In this document: positions 28,098-62,206 of the stretch, piece by piece
Layout of the letters: each line of letters opens with the position of its first letter
Numbering within the stretch: position 1 is the stretch's first letter
Source: Minisyncoccia bacterium
GTDB taxonomy: Bacteria > Patescibacteriota > Minisyncoccia > Phycocordibacterales > PALSA-1337
Direction: 5' to 3'
Length of the DNA stretch: 64,000 nucleotides
NCBI GenBank assembly: GCA_044228445.1
Contig: JBGAUV010000001.1
Span: 15,827-79,826 of the forward strand
Notes under the pieces: generated by a model
The model's input: only the letters and a program-made list of their open reading frames with translations
What the model was told of the DNA's origin: nothing
Database searches by the model: none
Position numbers and translations under genes: made by a program

Positions 28098-28517
28098 TTA
28101 AACCTTAGCAGCCTTTGGCTTTTTATTTCCGTACTGGCTTCTACCCTTTCTTCTCTTTTCTACTCCTCCTGCATCTAGAACACCACGAACTACTGAATAT
28201 CTAAGACCTACGTCCTTTACACGACCTCCTCTTAATAGAACAACTGAGTGTTCTTGCAGATTATGTCCTTCCCCTGGAATATATGCAGTTACTTCCATAC
28301 CATTACTTAGTCTTACTCTAGCAATCTTTCTAATAGCTGAGTTAGGCTTTTTTGGAGTCTTTGTTGTAACTTTTATACATACACCTCTTTTAAATGGAGA
28401 TGGGAAAAAGTTTGGACGATTTTTAATTGTATTAAAGCTCTTTGTTAGAGCAATAGACTTTGACTTACGCACAAAAGTCTTTCTTCTTCTCTTAATAAGT
28501 TGATTTATTGTTGGCAT
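28098..28517 (-). CDS. rpsL: 30S ribosomal protein S12
   Basis: MPTINQLI..R..., PKKPNSA.RK S12 signature. Confidence 0.9.
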
Positions 28518-28656
28518 TATTTATTTATTTCACCATAAAAGTGTACGCTTCACCGGCATATATATAGTATATAGACCGTGTTACTCACTTTTATGTTCTA
28601 TTAATGTACGTCTTTAAACGTGGGAATACTCTAACATATAGGTATATAAAAGAAAC

Positions 28657-28819
28657 GCGGCGGGGCCCCCGTGCCCCGCCGCTGCACCTTATTGAATCGA
28701 GCGCAATAAGATGCTCTGTCTAGGAACACAGGTATGAGCCGTTCCTGTGTCGGGTGAGGGTCTATGGACCTCACCCAATTCTTGCCTACACCACTGACTC
28801 GTGACCAATGTGTCGGCAA
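28657..28819. ncRNA. GC-rich array of 4-5 perfect hairpins; putative structured RNA, or 5' leader element of the str operon if minus-strand
   Basis: gcggcggggc-ccccgt-gccccgccgc, cttattg..caataag, acacagg..cctgtgt, gggtgagg..cctcaccc, ttgcc..ggcaa; >60% GC in ~30% GC context; the 64-aa ORF here is implausible. Confidence 0.35.
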
Positions 28820-28843
28820 ATTCAAAATCTTTTAATAATATAC

Positions 28844-50596: not shown

Positions 50597-52126
50597 ATGT
50601 CACTTAAACTAGTCGCACTACTCCTTTCTATAGCAGGGGTTGCTGGTCTTGCGATAGGATACTATCTACGTTTAATCATTTCTCTTGGTAAAAAGGGTTC
50701 CATGGAACTTGAAATCAAAGAAATGCTCTTAACAGCAAAAGAAGAAGGAAAAAAGATAGTCTCTGCATCAGAAGAAAAAGCTAACTCTATATTAGAAGAA
50801 GCTAGAAGAGAGATAAAAGAAAAAGAAGAAAAAATACAACAAACTGAATCCCGCCTTATAAAAAAGGAGGATCTTTTGGATAAAAGACAGATTGATATCG
50901 ATAAAGAAGTAGAAATAATAAAAAGTCGTGTTGCTGAAATAAAAACAATAAAGGATAAAGTAGATAAAATGGAAATCGAGAGACTACAAATACTTGAAAA
51001 AGTATCAAATATGTCTCAAGAAGAAGCAAAAAATGAAATTATAAAGAATATAGAAAAGAATCATACTGAAGATTTGATGGTTAGAATTCAGAAACTCGAA
51101 CAAAATGGCGAAGATATTCTTGAAAATAAAGCAAAAGATATACTAGCCACATCTATTCAAAGATTAGCAAATTCTGTTGCTTCAGATGTAATGTCTACAT
51201 CAGTAAACATACCAAATGACGAAATTAAAGGAAAAATAATAGGAAAAGAAGGAAGAAATATCAAAGCTTTTGAAAGAATGTCTGGGGTTGAAATAATTGT
51301 TGATGATACACCAGGAAATATAACCATATCATCATTTGATCCAATACGTCGTCATGTCGCTAAAATGGCTCTAGAAGAGTTAATAAAGGATGGACGTATA
51401 CAACCAGCAAAAATAGAAAAAGCAATTGAAGAAGCTCAAAATAACATAAATAAAACTATAAAAGAAAAGGGTGAACAGGCTGCTTATGAATGCGGGGTTA
51501 TTGGTTTGGACCCAAGAATACTACTTATACTAGGTAGATTACATTTCCGTACTAGTTATGGACAAAATGTATTACAGCATTCTATAGAAATGAGCCATAT
51601 TGCTGGAATGATAGCAGAAGAAATCGGAGCAAATGTAGCAGTGGCAAAAGCCGGGGCATTACTGCACGATATTGGAAAAGCTTTGGATCATGAAGTTGTA
51701 GGTACACATGTAGAAATAGGTAGAAGAATATTGCAAAAGTTTGGTGCTAATGAAGAAATAGTGAAAGCTATGCAAGCACATCATGAAGAATATCCTTATG
51801 AAACACCAGAATCACGTATAGTACAAGCAGCAGATGCAATATCAGGAGCAAGACCAGGAGCTAGAAGTGATAGTATTGAAAACTATTTAAAGAGACTTGG
51901 AGATCTAGAAGCAATTGCAAACGCTTTCCCTGCTGTAGAAAAATCATATGCCCTTCAAGCAGGACGAGAAATAAGAATATTTGTTAAGCCAGAAAATATA
52001 AATGATATTGAATCAAAGAAACTTGCAAGAGATATAGCTATAAAAATTGAAAAGGATCTAAAATACCCAGGAGAGATAAAAGTAACGGTGATTAGAGAGA
52101 CAAGAGCAATAGAATTTGCCAGATAG
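50597..52126 (+). CDS. rny: Ribonuclease Y
   Basis: N-terminal TM, coiled-coil, KH domain (IIGKEGRNI) and HD domain (LLHDIGK). Confidence 0.9.
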   Translation: MSLKLVALLLSIAGVAGLAIGYYLRLIISLGKKGSMELEIKEMLLTAKEEGKKIVSASEEKANSILEEARREIKEKEEKIQQTESRLIKKEDLLDKRQIDIDKEVEIIKSRVAEIKTIKDKVDKMEIERLQILEKVSNMSQEEAKNEIIKNIEKNHTEDLMVRIQKLEQNGEDILENKAKDILATSIQRLANSVASDVMSTSVNIPNDEIKGKIIGKEGRNIKAFERMSGVEIIVDDTPGNITISSFDPIRRHVAKMALEELIKDGRIQPAKIEKAIEEAQNNINKTIKEKGEQAAYECGVIGLDPRILLILGRLHFRTSYGQNVLQHSIEMSHIAGMIAEEIGANVAVAKAGALLHDIGKALDHEVVGTHVEIGRRILQKFGANEEIVKAMQAHHEEYPYETPESRIVQAADAISGARPGARSDSIENYLKRLGDLEAIANAFPAVEKSYALQAGREIRIFVKPENINDIESKKLARDIAIKIEKDLKYPGEIKVTVIRETRAIEFAR

Positions 52127-56505: not shown

Positions 56506-57999
56506 ATGAAACATACTCAATTATTAAATGAGGTTATACCTGCTGAGGTGGTAAGTGCTATAGAGACACTAGAAAAGGGTGGTTTTGAAGCATATCTAGT
56601 GGGTGGTTGTGTAAGAGATATATTACTTGGTAGGGAACCAAAAGACTGGGATATAACTACAAATGCTAAACCAGAACAAATAATCCCATTATTCAAAAAA
56701 ACTTTCTATGAAAACAGCTTTGGAACCGTAGCTGTAGTGAATGAAGATACAAAAAATGAAAAACTAAAAGTAATTGAGATAACTCCATATAGAATAGAAG
56801 GGAAGTATAGTGATTTTAGACACCCAGATGAAATTAAATTTGGAGAAAGTATAGAACAAGATCTAAAGAGAAGAGACTTCACAGTAAATGCAATGGCAAT
56901 GAGTTTATCAAATGGGTCTATAAAGGACATAATTGATTTATACGGTGGTTTAAAGGACATAAAGGACAAAGTACTCAGATCAGTAGGTGAAGCGTCACTA
57001 CGCTTCAATGAAGACGCTTTAAGGATGATGCGTGCTGGTCGCTTAGCAACAGAACTTGGTTTCACGTTAAACATTGATACTGAAAAGGCTATAAATAAGG
57101 ATAAAATACTTTTAAAACAGATATCTAGTGAGAGAATTAGAGATGAATTTGTTAAAATTTTAATGTCTAAACAACCTAAAGAGGGAATTGATACTTTGTA
57201 CAGACTAGGAATACTTGAAATTATACTACCTGAACTTCATAAAGCTAAGGGTGTTACACAAAATCAAGCGCATGCTTATGATGTATATGAACACCTATTG
57301 AGAAGTCTCCAGCATGCAGCGGATAAGGATTGGCCTATTGAAATAAGGCTTTCAGCTCTATTTCATGATATATCAAAGCCTGAGACAAAGAGATTTTCAC
57401 GTGAAACTGGTCAAATTACATTCTATAACCATGAAGTTGTAGGTTCACGTGTAACAAAAGCAATACTGGAAAGGATGAAGTTTCCAACGAAAACAATAGA
57501 TAAGGTATGTACAATGATAAGATGGCATATGTTTTTCTCTGATACGGAAACAATAACACTATCCGCAGTAAGAAGAATGATAAACAACGTAGGTAAAGAT
57601 AATATATGGGATTTAATGAATTTACGTATATGTGACCGCATAGGAACTGGAAGGCCCAAAGAAAACCCTTATAGATTAAGGAAGTATAAAGCTATGGTAG
57701 AACAAGCTATGCACGATCCAATAAGTGTGGGAATGCTTAAGATAGATGGAAAGGGGATAATGGAAGTTACACATGAAACTCCTGGACCAAAAATTGGTTA
57801 TATATTAAATGCTTTATTAGAAGAGGTTTTAGACAAACCAGAACTAAATACAACTGATTATTTGAACAATAGAGCCGTAGAATTATCAAAAATGCCTGTA
57901 AAAGAATTAATTGAACTAGGAAATAAGGGTAAAGAGAAGAAAGATAAAATAGAAAAGGGAAGTATTGAGGAAATCAATAAGAAGTATCACGTTCAATAA
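56506..57999 (+). CDS. cca: CCA-adding enzyme / tRNA nucleotidyltransferase with HD domain
   Basis: Pol-beta NTase head (LVGGCVRDILLGREPKDWDITT), HD motif (FHDISKP). Confidence 0.85.
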   Translation: MKHTQLLNEVIPAEVVSAIETLEKGGFEAYLVGGCVRDILLGREPKDWDITTNAKPEQIIPLFKKTFYENSFGTVAVVNEDTKNEKLKVIEITPYRIEGKYSDFRHPDEIKFGESIEQDLKRRDFTVNAMAMSLSNGSIKDIIDLYGGLKDIKDKVLRSVGEASLRFNEDALRMMRAGRLATELGFTLNIDTEKAINKDKILLKQISSERIRDEFVKILMSKQPKEGIDTLYRLGILEIILPELHKAKGVTQNQAHAYDVYEHLLRSLQHAADKDWPIEIRLSALFHDISKPETKRFSRETGQITFYNHEVVGSRVTKAILERMKFPTKTIDKVCTMIRWHMFFSDTETITLSAVRRMINNVGKDNIWDLMNLRICDRIGTGRPKENPYRLRKYKAMVEQAMHDPISVGMLKIDGKGIMEVTHETPGPKIGYILNALLEEVLDKPELNTTDYLNNRAVELSKMPVKELIELGNKGKEKKDKIEKGSIEEINKKYHVQ

Positions 58000-58590
58000 T
58001 AAACTTAATAATTAGTATTATATTAAAAAAGCTAAATATTTAACTCTTGTAATATTATTTCACGTGAAACTGTATATAAAGTAGTAAATATGGCTATAAA
58101 TAAGGCTACAATAAGAAAACCGCGTATGACGTCGATTTCCAGAGGTTACATGAAATCGCATCAAAACGCGGTTTTTAGAGTACATCTGGAAATTGTCAAA
58201 AGAGCTAATGAAGAACTGACCGTCAAGATCGAGCGTGGGAGAAGACGTGATATGCTTCAATAAATTTAGGTGCCACCCAGATAAGGTGACTAGTTGTTAA
58301 TTGTGAAGACAAACGTCTCAAGCCATAGCCCAAACAAGGGCTGCCTTCGGTATTACCTCTACTTGAGGTAATAAAAAAAATAAACAATTTTTCAGATGTA
58401 AAAAACTAAAGAGTACACTACCCATTTTTTTACAAAGAACAATTGTTCGAAAATAATTTTTATCTATTAGATATTTCCTTGGTTTAACCTAACAGATATT
58501 TAACTTTCAAACTGATCTGGGATTATTATAGCAAGTGTAAAAGACATGTAAAGGACATTTAAATAAAAACTGTGGATAAGTCCTTTATAT

Positions 58591-59401: not shown

Positions 59402-60319
59402 TTACCCCTTCCTATGAAACTTTTGATGTACTTTCTTTAATTCACTATCTGTAATATGTGTATATATCTGTGTCGTTCCTATATTTGCATGTCCAAGTAA
59501 CATTTGAACCGAACGCAAATCAGCACCATTTCGCAATAAGTCTGTAGCAAAAGAGTGGCGAATAACGTGTGGAGTTACCTTTTTTGATATTCCAGCCTTA
59601 ATTGCATAAAACTTTATTATTCTTTCTACTGATCTTGGAGTTAAACGTAGTGTATTTCTTTTCTTTTTATCGGCAATTTGAACAAATAATGCATCGTCCA
59701 TGTCTTTTCTCTTTTTTAAATATTCATTTACCCATTTTTTTGCATTTTCTGATAAAAATACTACTCTGACCTTTTCTCCCTTTCCTCTTATAGAAAATTC
59801 ATCTAATTTCAAATTTATATCTCTTGGTAGGGAACATAGCTCTGAAACACGCAAACCTGTTGAAAATAACAATTCCATCATTGCTCTATCACGTAAACCT
59901 TGAATTGTATTTGTATCCGGTGCTTTTAATAAATCATTCAATTCCTCTATATTTATTAAATCTATTGATCTTTCTGCTACTTTTGCCAATTCTATTCTCT
60001 CTGGTGGTATTACTTCTATACTTCTCTTAGCTAAATACTTCAAAAAAGAGCGTAAAGCAATTAAATAATAATTCTGTGTACGTTTCTTTATTGGAGTAGG
60101 GGAGCCTCCTTTTACTTTTACTGTTTGTTGTCTATTTAACCAAAGTCTATACTCTCTAAGTACGGTATCTGTTATATCTTTTGGGTTTTTAACCTTAGTA
60201 TGCTGTAAAAATACACTTATATAGTGATCATAGTTTCTCACAGTACTCAAACTTCTTCCTTTTTCTATTTCTACATATTGAAGAAATTCTGTTTTGAGAT
60301 CTGTTATATTGTGCGACAT
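59402..60319 (-). CDS. xerC: Tyrosine site-specific recombinase XerC/XerD family (start moved to MSHNITDL)
   Basis: C-terminal R..H..R..Y catalytic box: RHSFATDLLRNGADLRSVQMLLGHANIGTTQIYTH. Confidence 0.85.
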   Translation of the reverse strand: MSHNITDLKTEFLQYVEIEKGRSLSTVRNYDHYISVFLQHTKVKNPKDITDTVLREYRLWLNRQQTVKVKGGSPTPIKKRTQNYYLIALRSFLKYLAKRSIEVIPPERIELAKVAERSIDLINIEELNDLLKAPDTNTIQGLRDRAMMELLFSTGLRVSELCSLPRDINLKLDEFSIRGKGEKVRVVFLSENAKKWVNEYLKKRKDMDDALFVQIADKKKRNTLRLTPRSVERIIKFYAIKAGISKKVTPHVIRHSFATDLLRNGADLRSVQMLLGHANIGTTQIYTHITDSELKKVHQKFHRKG

Positions 60320-60369
60320 GACTATATTGTAACAGAAATATAGTTTTCCACAGTTATACACAGAATTGT

Positions 60370-60398
60370 TTGACAAGCTTTTTCTATGGGAGTATATT
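60370..60398 (+). promoter_or_regulatory. Consensus sigma70-type promoter (TTGACA, 17-bp spacer, TATATT) driving the GC-rich noncoding unit
   Basis: TTGACA at 60370..60375, TATATT at 60393..60398. Confidence 0.45.
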
Positions 60399-60404
60399 CA
60401 TGTA

Positions 60405-60756
60405 CGAAGCAGTACATTGGAAGTAATTAAGCAGTAGTCGGTGAACCGATGTGACTGCTCTGTCACAAAACCCGCTCCACACGCGATGTGTGGAGCAAAT
60501 TGGAAAGGTCCCAACTATGAAGAGTCCGAACGCGCCCCCTGGCAACGTTACCGTTGCCACCGCCCCCCATGGATTCAATGGCCTGACGAAGGCCTCCACC
60601 CCCCTGCGGAATACGGAGTATCCCGACAACCCGGCCCGCATCGCCTCCTCCCAGAAGCTCGGAGAACCGAGCACGTACGGTTGCTCCGCCTGACCACTCT
60701 AATCCGGTCAGAACGAGCATTTGCCACTTCATCCGGTCGATGGAGTGGCATTTTTT
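60405..60756 (+). ncRNA. Putative ~350-nt GC-rich highly structured ncRNA (class unassigned; RNase P RNA / tmRNA / novel)
   Basis: No plausible ORF (four mutually overlapping G/P/R-rich ORFs); ~60% GC; perfect hairpins (gctccacac-gcgat-gtgtggagc, ggcaacg-ttac-cgttgcc, gctcgg-agaa-ccgagc, ctgacc..ggtcag); ends in terminator gccacttcatc-cggtcg-gatggagtggc plus TTTTTT. Confidence 0.45.
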
Positions 60757-60821
60757 ATATCTATTATAACCCTTAAAATAAGGGTATTTTTTATTATTTA
60801 ATACTCTATTCATAATTTTAC

Positions 60822-60850
60822 TTGACAAATATTTTATATATGCTAGGATA
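60822..60850 (+). promoter_or_regulatory. Second promoter-like element (TTGACA then 16-17 bp then TAGGAT/TATATA)
   Basis: TTGACA at 60822..60827. Confidence 0.3.
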
Positions 60851-60856
60851 TTACCA

Positions 60857-61138
60857 GATGAACCTTGTTAGTACCCTTTATCTGGGGCAGGGAACATCTA
60901 AGGATCGGCGACGTAGCCAAATCCTTCAACACATGAATCTCTCCTAATGAGTTTATTGTTAGGAGAAAACGTGGGACTGAAAGGAGTCCATGAACAAAGA
61001 CCCGCCCGTCGAGTAAGATTTCTTGCTCGGACGACACAAAAAAGAATCAAACCTCAACCCGAGAACGCCAGCTCTATTGCCTAAGCGTTCTCATAACCCG
61101 GACTCTAGCGTGTTGCAACGCTCGAGTCCGATTTTTTT
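60857..61138 (+). ncRNA. Second putative structured ncRNA (~280 nt), ends at a strong intrinsic terminator just upstream of the rpsO promoter
   Basis: No ORF; hairpins tctcctaa..ttaggaga, gagaacgc..gcgttctc, ggat..atcc; terminator ggactctagcg-tgttgcaa-cgctcgagtcc plus gaTTTTTTT at 61100..61138. Confidence 0.35.
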
Positions 61139-61193
61139 ATAAAACACATACAGTATTGCTTTATAAACACATTCATGCTATTATCTTCACACA

Positions 61194-61460
61194 ATGCTTA
61201 CAACAAAACAGAAAGAAAAAGTAATAAAGCTTGCAGCGATTCACGATAAGGACACTGGCTCTCCAGAGGTTCAGATTTCAATTTTAACAAAGAAGATCAA
61301 TGAACTAGCTCTACATTTGAAGAAACATAAGAAAGACAATCACTCAAGAAGAGGTTTGTTAGCTATGGTTTCAGACAGACAAGCACATATGAACTATTTG
61401 AAGAAGAAGAATCCAAAGAGATACTCAAGTATTGCAAAAAAGCTAGATTTGAAGAAATAA
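61194..61460 (+). CDS. rpsO: 30S ribosomal protein S15
   Basis: S15 signature ...GSPEVQI..LT.KI..L..HLK.HKKD.HSRRGLL.MV..R...L.YL...; TTGCTT-17-TATTAT promoter ends about 10 nt before ATG (near-leaderless). Confidence 0.9.
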   Translation: MLTTKQKEKVIKLAAIHDKDTGSPEVQISILTKKINELALHLKKHKKDNHSRRGLLAMVSDRQAHMNYLKKKNPKRYSSIAKKLDLKK

Positions 61461-61564: not shown

Positions 61565-62206
61565 ATGTCAGTAATAAAACATAAAGAACAACGTGTTGGT
61601 ATTTTTATAGACACACAAAACATATATCATAGTGGGAAAAATCTATATCATTCAAAAGTAAATTTTGGACAAATAGTAAAGGATGCTCTGGAAAATCGTT
61701 CTCTAATACGTGCAGTAGCATATGTTATAACAACAGAAGCAGGGGATGAGAAAGGCTTTTTTGATGCTTTAACAAAAATGGGTATTGAAACAAAGACAAA
61801 GGATTTGCAAATATTCGGTAGTGGAGCAAAAAAGGCAGATTGGGATGTAGGATTGGCAATTGATGCAGTTAAAATGGCTCCAAAGCTTGATGCAGTAATA
61901 CTCGTAACTGGAGATGGGGACTTTGTACCACTAGTTGAATACTTACAAATGAATGAAGGATGTCAGGTAGAAGTAGTTTCATTTGGAAAATCAACATCAA
62001 CAAAGCTAGTTGAAGCAGCAGATGACTTTAAAGATCTTGATTCAGATCCACAGAAATACCTTATAAACAATAAAAGTAATTTTAATACTAAAAGCAAGAA
62101 TACAAAGCATAATTTCAAAAAAAGAAATAATGATAGAAATGAAATATCACAAGATACAGAAGAAAATATAGGTGATATGTCAGCAGATTTATCAGGACAA
62201 GAATAA
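61565..62206 (+). CDS. NYN-domain (LabA-like, PIN-like) protein
   Basis: VGIFIDTQNIYHS...VILVTGDGDFVPLVEYLQ NYN pattern. Confidence 0.65.
   Translation: MSVIKHKEQRVGIFIDTQNIYHSGKNLYHSKVNFGQIVKDALENRSLIRAVAYVITTEAGDEKGFFDALTKMGIETKTKDLQIFGSGAKKADWDVGLAIDAVKMAPKLDAVILVTGDGDFVPLVEYLQMNEGCQVEVVSFGKSTSTKLVEAADDFKDLDSDPQKYLINNKSNFNTKSKNTKHNFKKRNNDRNEISQDTEENIGDMSADLSGQE

Follow-up and report, generated by a model that had tools for sequence, protein, structure and literature searches.

A 64-kb stretch of DNA from a Minisyncoccia bacterium (contig JBGAUV010000001.1; hereafter, the window) contains two GC-rich islands, at 60401-60780 and 60891-61140, between a divergent tyrosine recombinase gene and rpsO, the gene for ribosomal protein S15. 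Their GC contents peak at 0.68 and 0.52, respectively, and the region of the second island lies at 0.43 to 0.52, compared with 0.32 for the AT-rich window. The islands mark two tandem units, unit 1 and unit 2 (Table 1), and the second is our subject here. A first-pass annotation, made from the sequence alone, had described the pair as two adjacent, independent noncoding RNAs and unit 2 as about 280 nucleotides (nt) without an open reading frame (ORF). Based on the comparisons below, unit 2 is one of two tandem members of an unannotated, Paceibacteria-specific family of predicted RNAs. Its own promoter and terminator uphold the claim of independence, and no long ORF is present, but the term noncoding has to be qualified: the unit carries a Shine-Dalgarno (SD)-like site and an 8-codon frame that form a conserved start module, with an SD sequence, a start codon, and a Pro-Pro mini-ORF.

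Promoter-to-terminator units upstream of rpsO

The promoter of unit 2, a TTGACA box with a plausible -10 element in the first-pass annotation, matches 10 of 12 consensus positions in a consensus scan and has an extended -10 element. Transcription probably starts at about 60855 to 60857. The 284-nt RNA has a predicted folding energy of -99.8 kcal/mol, compared with -68.0 ± 4.6 kcal/mol for 200 dinucleotide shuffles (z = -6.9), none of which was as stable. The extreme 5' end is predicted to pair in a helix, P1, that joins AGAUG (60856-60860) with CAUCU (60895-60899) and CCUUGU with GCAGGG; the full-length minimum free energy (MFE) fold shows an alternative local pairing (CAGAUGAA/UUUAUCUG). Both of the perfect 8-bp stems noted earlier are present, one each in hairpins P3 and P6, and the strong terminator said to close the unit is also there, with 12 of 13 pairs in its 13-nt arms (92% complementary). 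The sibling unit 1 folds with a z score of -5.2, and its second terminator covaries in a close relative, L001 (GGCTTA...TAAGCC).

Table 1. Features of the two units and their flanks in the window
Feature	Position	Strand	Details
xerC/D-like tyrosine recombinase gene	59402-60376	-	
Unit 1, sibling of unit 2	60370-60785	+	
Unit 1 promoter	60370-60398	+	TTGACA/TATATT, 11/12 match
Unit 1 SD-like site	60502	+	GGAAAGG
Unit 1 frame	60517-60693	+	58 codons, GC-rich (MKSPNAPPGN...); GC content at third codon positions (GC3), 0.78
Unit 1 tandem terminators	60722-60750 and 60769-60785	+	
Unit 2 promoter	60822-60849	+	-35 TTGACA 60822-60827; 16-nt spacer; extended -10 TG-n-TAGGAT 60844-60849
P1, helix of the RNA's extreme 5' end	60856-60899	+	
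P2 hairpin	60900-60926	+	AAGGAU...AUCCUU; in MFE and centroid folds
P3 hairpin	60932-60973	+	Holds 8-bp stem TCTCCTAA 60940-60947 / TTAGGAGA 60959-60966
SD-like site GAAAGGAG	60979-60986	+	Loop and 3' arm of small hairpin 60973-60989
Mini-ORF	60990-61016	+	ATG AAC AAA GAC CCG CCC GTC GAG TAA (MNKDPPVE*); 8 codons
P5 hairpin	61007-61033	+	CGUCGAGUAAG...CUUGCUCGGACG; mini-ORF stop codon in 5' arm
P6 hairpin	61061-61092	+	8-bp stem GAGAACGC 61061-61068 / GCGTTCTC 61085-61092
Intrinsic terminator	61099-61138	+	Arms 61099-61111 / 61118-61130; U7 61132-61138
rpsO promoter	61156-61193	+	-35 TTGCTT 61156-61161; 17-nt spacer; TG-extended -10 TGCTATTAT 61176-61184; 9 nt to ATG
rpsO (S15)	61194-61460		ATG at 61194; Pfam E = 5e-30

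The first-pass view that rpsO has its own promoter is borne out by related loci (described below). An extended -10 element (TGnTAnnnT) ends 6 to 9 nt before the rpsO ATG in 125 of 143 distinct loci, and an SD-like sequence precedes rpsO in none of the 143. With the -10 element so near the ATG and no SD sequence, the rpsO mRNA is predicted to be leaderless in the clade, and classical S15 autoregulation through a 5' untranslated region (UTR) could therefore not operate. Given the strong terminator and the separate rpsO promoter, unit 2 would not be part of the rpsO transcript, and its status as an independent promoter-to-terminator unit outside that transcript is supported.

These results bear directly on the idea, raised in the first-pass annotation, that unit 2 is a very long S15-responsive leader. 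Known S15 leaders are located within the rpsO 5' UTR, where they overlap the ribosome-binding site (PMC4137082, PMC4684408). Unit 2 resembles them in being a structured RNA immediately upstream of rpsO; unlike them, it is terminated (at 61138) before the rpsO promoter (61156-61184), and the rpsO mRNA that follows is predicted to be leaderless. No Rfam S15-leader model matches, and about three-quarters of the relatives lack a unit, so we abandon this idea. Within P1, a U-G pair next to a C-G pair occurs in only 7 of 22 units, in the order opposite to that of the 16S helix 22 motif.

A structured RNA family and its conserved core

Searches against known RNA classes returned nothing for the units. 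Rfam 15 identified only four tRNAs in the window, all elsewhere; over 60250-61250, nothing matched at gathering score and nothing credible appeared at E ≤ 10, and neither 18 related loci (gathering score) nor the full-length L061 and L001 units (E ≤ 1) gave a match. ARAGORN found four tRNAs in the window, again all elsewhere, and no tmRNA or tRNA in unit 2 or in 27 related loci. The earlier suggestion of a two-piece transfer-messenger RNA (tmRNA) or other split RNA therefore fails. A tmRNA shares with the units a structured RNA with an internal short frame, but its frame has neither an SD sequence nor an AUG and ends in a hydrophobic degradation tag, and it has a tRNA-like domain. The unit frame has an SD-like sequence and an AUG, the peptides end in ...VE, ...ANK, ...YLT, ...FSS, and similar residues, and ARAGORN detects no tRNA-like domain. 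More generally, a divergent housekeeping RNA (two-piece tmRNA, RNase P RNA, signal recognition particle RNA, or 6S RNA) has as its sole support that the units are GC rich and structured and have their own promoter and terminator. Its chance is negligible in our view, as Rfam is negative even at E ≤ 10, the unit is absent at this locus in about 75% of relatives, unit length ranges from 130 to 600 nt across the family, and no T-arm, acceptor stem, P4, or domain-IV motifs were seen by inspection. Literature searches found no published description of such an RNA in the candidate phyla radiation (CPR).

We compared the locus with 160 loci anchored on S15 (80 species-representative and 80 metagenome loci, given here by L numbers), all of them from Patescibacteria (CPR) and labeled Paceibacteria, Taylorbacteria, or Parcubacteria. 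About 35 of the 160 have one or two units directly upstream of rpsO, and the other loci have a gap of 20 to 80 nt. The closest relatives, L001 (identical to L081) and L002, have S15 sequences 99% identical to that of the window and the same layout of xer, unit 1, unit 2, and rpsO, such that both units are conserved together and in order. The window aligns with these two loci over the promoters, the initial ~15 nt of both RNAs, the terminators, and the promoter of rpsO, and unit 2 is ~470 nt long in L001 and L002, compared with ~284 nt in the window. Searches by primary sequence were blind to the rest of the family: when both units were compared with 80 loci by blastn, the only match was one of 16 nt, to L001 and L002, and a single-sequence nhmmer search gave no match at E ≤ 10. 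The unit interiors are too different, and homology is seen only through architecture and short motifs.

The fold is supported by compensatory changes. Between L001 and L002, the terminator stem changes from GCCCGGCGCAC...GCGCCGGGC to GCCCGGTGCAC...GCACCGGGC, and another stem changes from CCCCTC/GAGGGG to CCCGTC/GACGGG. In the three-way alignment, 8 of 42 predicted pairs have double changes, and hairpins with compensatory changes occur in other subclades as well. Terminators stand at the equivalent place in all related units. The individual hairpins of unit 2 are kept to different degrees. P2 is variable in relatives, with L001 and L002 keeping a hairpin of different sequence at its position; P3 likewise has a counterpart in both, with compensatory changes (alignment columns 95 to 130); the GAGUAAG...CUCGG element of P5 is common to both; and P6 was not found in either, where a different domain of ~200 nt takes its place. 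The two 8-bp stems that had attracted attention belong to real predicted hairpins but lie outside the conserved core of the RNA.

Seven parts describe the family: (i) a promoter, TTGACAA...TRTGnTAnnnT; (ii) the 5'-end helix P1, whose 5' strand is conserved as RRAUGAnCUUUGA; (iii) a variable hairpin, or several; (iv) a linker rich in A that holds (A)GAAAGG(AG); (v) 4 to 16 nt further on, AUG AAn (xxx)0-3 CCn CCn, which reads M-N/K-x-P-P; (vi) a GC-rich body of variable length, joined in some clades by a ~250-nt 3' domain with long-range pairing; and (vii) a strong terminator 5 to 30 nt from the rpsO -35 element. In the first 80 loci and the window, 17 of 22 motif matches fell on the plus strand in the ~4% of the sequence (both strands) that lies upstream of rpsO.

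P1 was examined in prefix folds of 28 units, 22 of them anchored at a conserved [U/C]GAnC and 6 without the anchor. Positions -3 to +5 are paired in 73 to 95% of the anchored units, with GC/AU/UA exchanges that include GAAUG/CAUUC, GGAUG/CAUCC, AGAUG/CAUCU, and GAACG/CGUUC. As MAFFT alignments of the 5' modules left the 3' strands of P1 out of register, covariation was scored one sequence at a time in the anchored folds and checked against shuffles, in place of a covariance model. Duplex energies between the 5' 14 nt and the downstream 80 nt have a mean z score of -1.6 over the 28 units relative to shuffles, with 11 units below -2 and unit 2 at -3.4. We conclude that the units very probably represent a real, independent, and conserved structured RNA family. 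As far as sequence comparison can define it, the conserved core consists of the promoter, P1, the A-rich linker with GAAAGGAG, and the AUG with its M-N/K-x-P-P frame.

Two further observations concern the ends of the units. In one subclade, a long-range helix (CUAUGUUUUGAU/GGGUCAAAAAUAG) that shows compensatory changes closes the ~250-nt 3' domain (L061, 3656-3950; L098, 777-1071; L101, 2151-2450; L112, 364-658); unit 2 of the window has no such domain. Within a given genome, both units end in the same type of U tract, TTTTTTATA twice in the window (60722-60758 and 61118-61140) and TTTTACTTTA twice in L001 (3290-3320 and 3850-3880) and in L002, which suggests either concerted evolution or a lineage-specific requirement for termination.

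The start module and its coding signal

Judged from upstream signals, translation initiation in this genome is largely leaderless. A 4-mer SD core lies at -18 to -5 of only 2 of 42 confident window genes, compared with 10% of random positions, and a -10-like hexamer ends 5 to 10 nt before the ATG in 20 of 42, compared with 18% of random positions. In such an SD-poor, leaderless genome, the GAAAGGAG and AUG of the units are an exception. A 16S 3' tail of the CCUCCUUUC type is complementary to (A)GAAAGGAGG; for the units, this complementarity is assumed, the 16S 3' end being absent from the fetched loci.

In unit 2, 3 nt separate GAAAGGAG from the mini-ORF, and the family places (A)GAAAGG(AG) 4 to 16 nt before the AUG. 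The SD-like site and the AUG have predicted unpaired probabilities of 0.86 and 0.72, respectively, compared with 0.44 for the unit overall. With no frame imposed, 25 of 32 cases across the family have their first CCn[C/T]C downstream of the AUG in frame, the AUG-to-CCnCC offsets are 9, 12, 15, or 18 nt, and two of the out-of-frame cases are C runs that also hold an in-frame reading. Entropy in the offset-9 class is 1.4 to 1.8 bits at nucleotides 6, 12, and 15, all third codon positions, versus 0 to 0.5 bits at the first two positions of codon 2 and of both Pro codons, four of these positions being fixed by the definition of the class. Start codons exchange only among ATG, GTG, and TTG (unit 1, window versus L001 and L002; unit 2, window versus L050). 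The short ORF recurs in L050 (L107 has the identical sequence) as TTG-NKDPPE*, and this short form, MNKDPP(V)E*, is common to the window and L050 despite rpsO divergence of 0.78 in the proportion of synonymous differences (pS) and 0.18 in that of nonsynonymous differences (pN). A short frame common to such distant loci would be one that is maintained, not one that is decaying.

These signals sit poorly with a purely noncoding structured RNA, in which GAAAGGAG...AUGAAn...CCnCC would be an untranslated motif (bound by a protein or an RNA or serving as a pairing partner) of a trans regulator or sponge: the spacer changes in multiples of three, third positions wobble in codon 2 and both Pro codons, start replacements stay within ATG, GTG, and TTG, and the SD-to-AUG spacing is canonical. 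What speaks for the noncoding alternative is that a start-less GAAAGGAG lies inside the 3' domain and covarying long-range helix of L061, L098, L101, and L112, that the ORF body evolves without codon periodicity, that the MFE fold pairs the Pro codons (CCCGCCC) with upstream GGGG.CAGGG, and that gene callers never predicted the unit ORFs. We regard this alternative as unlikely, though with an appreciable chance of being right, and consider ribosome loading and translation of the mini-ORF to be probable.

Some observations weaken the case for a ribosome-loaded start module with a Pro-Pro pause. The in-frame Pro-Pro evidence is partly correlated by descent and amounts to perhaps four or five independent insertion or deletion events. 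The unit 2 frame of L001 and L002 (GTG GGT GAC GAG TCA CCC GAG TAA) has no Pro-Pro, nor do the unit 1 frames of these loci, so the pair cannot be indispensable. A point in favor of the module is that, in a search of both strands of the 64-kb window with a start-module profile hidden Markov model, built from 27 units with none from the window, the top two matches fell exactly on the predicted sites in unit 2 (60972-61007) and unit 1 (60498-60528), though the E values are individually marginal (0.77 and 1.2).

Two other short frames were seen. A 5-codon mini-ORF, AUG AAR CCN UUC (ACG/UUG/UUC) UAG (MKPF[TLF]*), recurs in the 3' part of some units, preceded by GAAAGG and with third-position variation in its Lys and Pro codons; relative to the rpsO ATG, it is found in L015 (-154), L024 (-222 and -139), L029, and L098 (-425). 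A third candidate (GAAAGGAGAAG-UUG-UCUUACACCCC...) was rejected, as its start varies among TTG, TTG, CTG, and ACG and the stretch forms a covarying helix.

The body of the frame behaves differently from its start. Mechanically called ORFs on the plus strand of unit 2 reach 39 to 45 amino acids, and family ORFs range from 7 to 58 codons. In eight alignable pairs of unit ORFs, pN is about equal to pS and the three codon positions have even shares of the differences (e.g., 12/10/11, 16/12/14, and 8/8/8); for rpsO in those pairs, 60 to 100% of differences are at third positions and pN/pS is below 0.1. A conserved protein is thereby rejected, though translation is not. In our reading, ribosome loading and the first few codons are under selection and the peptide is not. 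A small-protein gene encoding Asn/Pro/Gly/Ala-rich peptides of 25 to 58 residues, of which unit 2 would be a truncated or decayed paralog with a premature stop, could draw on the 58-codon frame in unit 1 and on weak shared motifs, namely, FVGAxGPG...GK[YH]LT in L076 and L126 and IRAAVGSAVGAN in L061, L098, and L112. Beside the lack of third-position excess, this explanation has to contend with the retention of the short form in the window and L050 and with GC3 values of 0.78 in unit 1 and 0.67 in unit 2, versus 0.36 to 0.41 in neighboring genes. The unit peptides belong to no Pfam or NCBIfam family, and an alignment of 26 of them found no match among 5.8 billion protein clusters. We therefore hold a small-protein gene to be improbable.

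For the same reason, a dual-function small RNA was rejected, the purifying selection on the peptide that it implies being absent from the eight pairs. RNAIII/hld, SgrS/SgrT, and SR1/SR1P resemble the units as structured promoter-to-terminator transcripts of a few hundred nt with an SD sequence and a short frame; their peptides are conserved and functional and their pairing targets are known, whereas the peptide body of the units evolves neutrally.

The units can diverge faster than adjacent synonymous sites, as estimated from close pairs of loci. The flanks of L012 and L018 are 92 to 100% identical except for one 84% window inside the upstream gene, and rpsO pS is 0.05, yet unit B is only 73 to 80% identical and unit A (~390 nt) is present in only one of the two. 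The compared spans were 3300-3960 in L012 and 3690-3960 in L018, where the locus appears as a divergence hot spot. Between L001 and L002, unit divergence is 0.5, compared with an rpsO pS of 0.29. Divergence slower than neutral is also seen (0.08 versus 0.32 for L123/L125, and likewise for L019/L023). Throughout, GC richness and hairpin density persist across units. The rapid divergence could reflect selection on the fold and not on the sequence, allelic replacement, or transcription-associated mutation.

Patchiness, tandem copies, and hypervariability would all be accounted for by a conflict or mobile cassette, such as a type I toxin-like mRNA, a defense element, or a unit integrated next to the xer gene. 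The presence or absence of a ~390-nt unit between the near-identical L012 and L018, the low identity of their unit B, and the tandem units adjoining a tyrosine recombinase gene fit such a cassette. Still, the site is always the same, and xer is present with or without units. The flanks of the units lack direct repeats and dif-like sites (partly by inspection), no repeats of the kind used by diversity-generating retroelements or of other kinds link the two units, and DNA matches to the units were absent from plasmids and phages. The 32 pattern matches in viral contigs are attributable to chance, as all of them lack both the ORF module and a GC island. A type I toxin mRNA specifically was rejected, since the peptides are polar and Asn/Pro/Gly/Ala rich, unlike membrane toxins, and no minus-strand promoter was found in the unit. 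Overall, the cassette explanation is decidedly improbable.

Nearest known systems and a proposed function

In bacteria with decay of the RNase Y/J type, known classes of 5' stabilizers comprise 5' stem-loops, the stabilizing SD sequence (STAB-SD) of cry3A, and the stalled ribosome of ermC (PMC4113751). A STAB-SD binds the 16S 3' end and blocks RNase J1 (PMC4113751). The units have comparable elements: a helix that uses the first nucleotides of the transcript, an SD-like GAAAGGAG (at 60979 in unit 2) with some start-less copies in relatives and an assumed 16S complementarity, and a potential ribosome pause near the 5' end. The window has a gene for RNase Y (50597-52126), and no RNase J gene was seen in it. 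Known stabilizers protect long coding mRNAs, whereas a unit has only a hairpin body and a terminator downstream; stabilization by the unit itself is what we would infer from these likenesses.

Leader ORFs with Pro codons and regulation dependent on elongation factor P (EF-P) are known from mgtP and mgtL of Salmonella (PMC3641672, PMC5021804, PMC6460261). As in these leaders, the units have a short ORF with conserved consecutive Pro codons and an otherwise unconstrained peptide, set among alternative hairpins upstream of an intrinsic terminator. The units differ in having no cotranscribed downstream gene, as a separate promoter serves rpsO, whose mRNA is predicted to be leaderless, and in having variable ORF lengths and terminator distances and no conserved antiterminator that we could find. 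The resemblance raises the question of a leader-peptide attenuator or long regulatory leader acting on rpsO, in which the terminator would respond either to ribosome progress through Pro-Pro, as a sensor of EF-P or Pro-tRNA, or to S15 binding, and readthrough would feed or occlude the leaderless rpsO promoter. The unit has the short ORF with a sensing motif that an attenuator needs (by sequence, a conserved SD, AUG, and in-frame Pro-Pro), and it always abuts the rpsO promoter, with its terminator about 5 to 30 nt from the -35 element. The minimal unit of L050 has a 7-codon ORF with only 4 nt between its stop and the terminator stem, and Pro-codon leader ORFs that control attenuation have precedents (mgtP, PMC3641672; EF-P and coupling, PMC5021804). 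The switch itself is harder to see. The only alternative pairing in the window, found by inspection, is 6 bp between the 3' arms of P5 (UCGGAC) and of the terminator (GUCCGA); the ORF stop lies 82 nt from the terminator in unit 2 and anywhere from 4 to more than 300 nt from it in the family; and a readthrough transcript would carry the rpsO AUG internally with no SD sequence and would translate poorly. Along with the absence of the unit from about 75% of relatives and of any S15-leader match, these points make attenuation quite unlikely. A sponge of the CsrB/RsmZ type was also rejected, as each unit has one to three GAAAGG motifs, mostly in single-stranded linkers, with the remaining GGA motifs of unit 2 placed in stems.

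By analogy, unit 2 is built to work most like the 5' stabilizer modules and the Pro-codon leader ORFs while being a member of neither class. The combination of a 5' helix, an SD-like site, and an early pause, which correspond to the three known classes of 5' stabilizers, leads us to propose that unit 2 is a self-stabilized, ribosome-loaded small RNA with a stabilizer or occupancy function. We hold this proposal tentatively, as plausible but short of probable. Ribosomes would load through the SD-like site, which is of a kind rare in this SD-poor and largely leaderless genome, and translation would start and then pause at the Pro-Pro codons at positions 5 and 6. Ribosome occupancy, and not the 8-residue peptide, would be what matters. 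The 5'-terminal helix and the bound or paused ribosome may shield the RNA from 5'-end-dependent decay, following the 5'-stabilizer logic of organisms with RNase Y and RNase J, such that the GC-rich hairpin body would accumulate as a stable and abundant RNA. Occupancy could also report translation status, through either EF-P or Pro-tRNA. Under this stabilizer model, a change of GAAAGGAG to GAAACCAG would shorten the half-life of the RNA. Stabilization accounts for the persistence of the RNA and not for its action, and it leaves both the linkage to rpsO and the very fast divergence without an account.

A more speculative possibility is that the units are CPR-specific, ribosome-engaging decoys. 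As perhaps the only strongly SD-bearing transcripts in the genome, they would engage the free 3' tail of 16S rRNA and hold ribosomes at Pro-Pro, thereby buffering or reporting ribosome availability, which could reflect assembly of the S15-nucleated 30S platform or EF-P status. Through their fixed place ahead of the leaderless rpsO promoter, they would link this signal to the supply of S15, e.g., by readthrough occlusion, and hypervariability would follow from selection on fold and GC content instead of sequence. We consider a decoy function improbable.

Other features of the window may be of use in placing the locus. Downstream, rpsO is followed by a gene for an NYN-domain protein (61565-62206; predicted RNase fold, Pfam E = 2e-35) and then by pnp from 62278, such that an extra putative nuclease gene splits the usual rpsO-pnp pair. 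A CCA-adding or poly(A) polymerase-type enzyme is encoded nearby (56506-57999). At 58090-58380 on the plus strand, a 57-codon ORF (MAINKATIRKPRM..., no Pfam match) precedes a moderately GC-rich stretch that ends in a hairpin, GGTATTACCTC...GAGGTAATA, with an A/T run, and this region may be another small gene or RNA. A third GC-rich island of ~190 nt (28650-28830, minus strand; GC content, 0.60) lies upstream of rpsL (S12; 28098-28517, minus strand) and has a promoter-like TTGCCT/TATATT and a GC-rich terminator (GCGGCGGGGCACGGGGGCCCCGCCGC and a U run); it has no Rfam match and no SD/AUG/Pro-Pro module. GC skew tracks gene orientation in the window and thus holds no information on the replication origin or terminus.

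RNA-based regulation is little known in the CPR/Patescibacteria, which make up a large share of bacterial diversity and have tiny genomes with few regulators. The rpsO locus gives a recurrent RNA family that can be defined by sequence and has unusual traits: a rare SD-led initiation site, a GC-rich hairpin body kept against AT pressure, and divergence that can be several-fold above that of adjacent synonymous sites. If ribosome loading is not the explanation, the units would still be an uncatalogued structured RNA family worth adding to Rfam. If it is, they would offer a handle on how the anti-SD sequence is used in bacteria dominated by leaderless initiation, and they would indicate that a stable RNA can be built from stabilizer modules alone.

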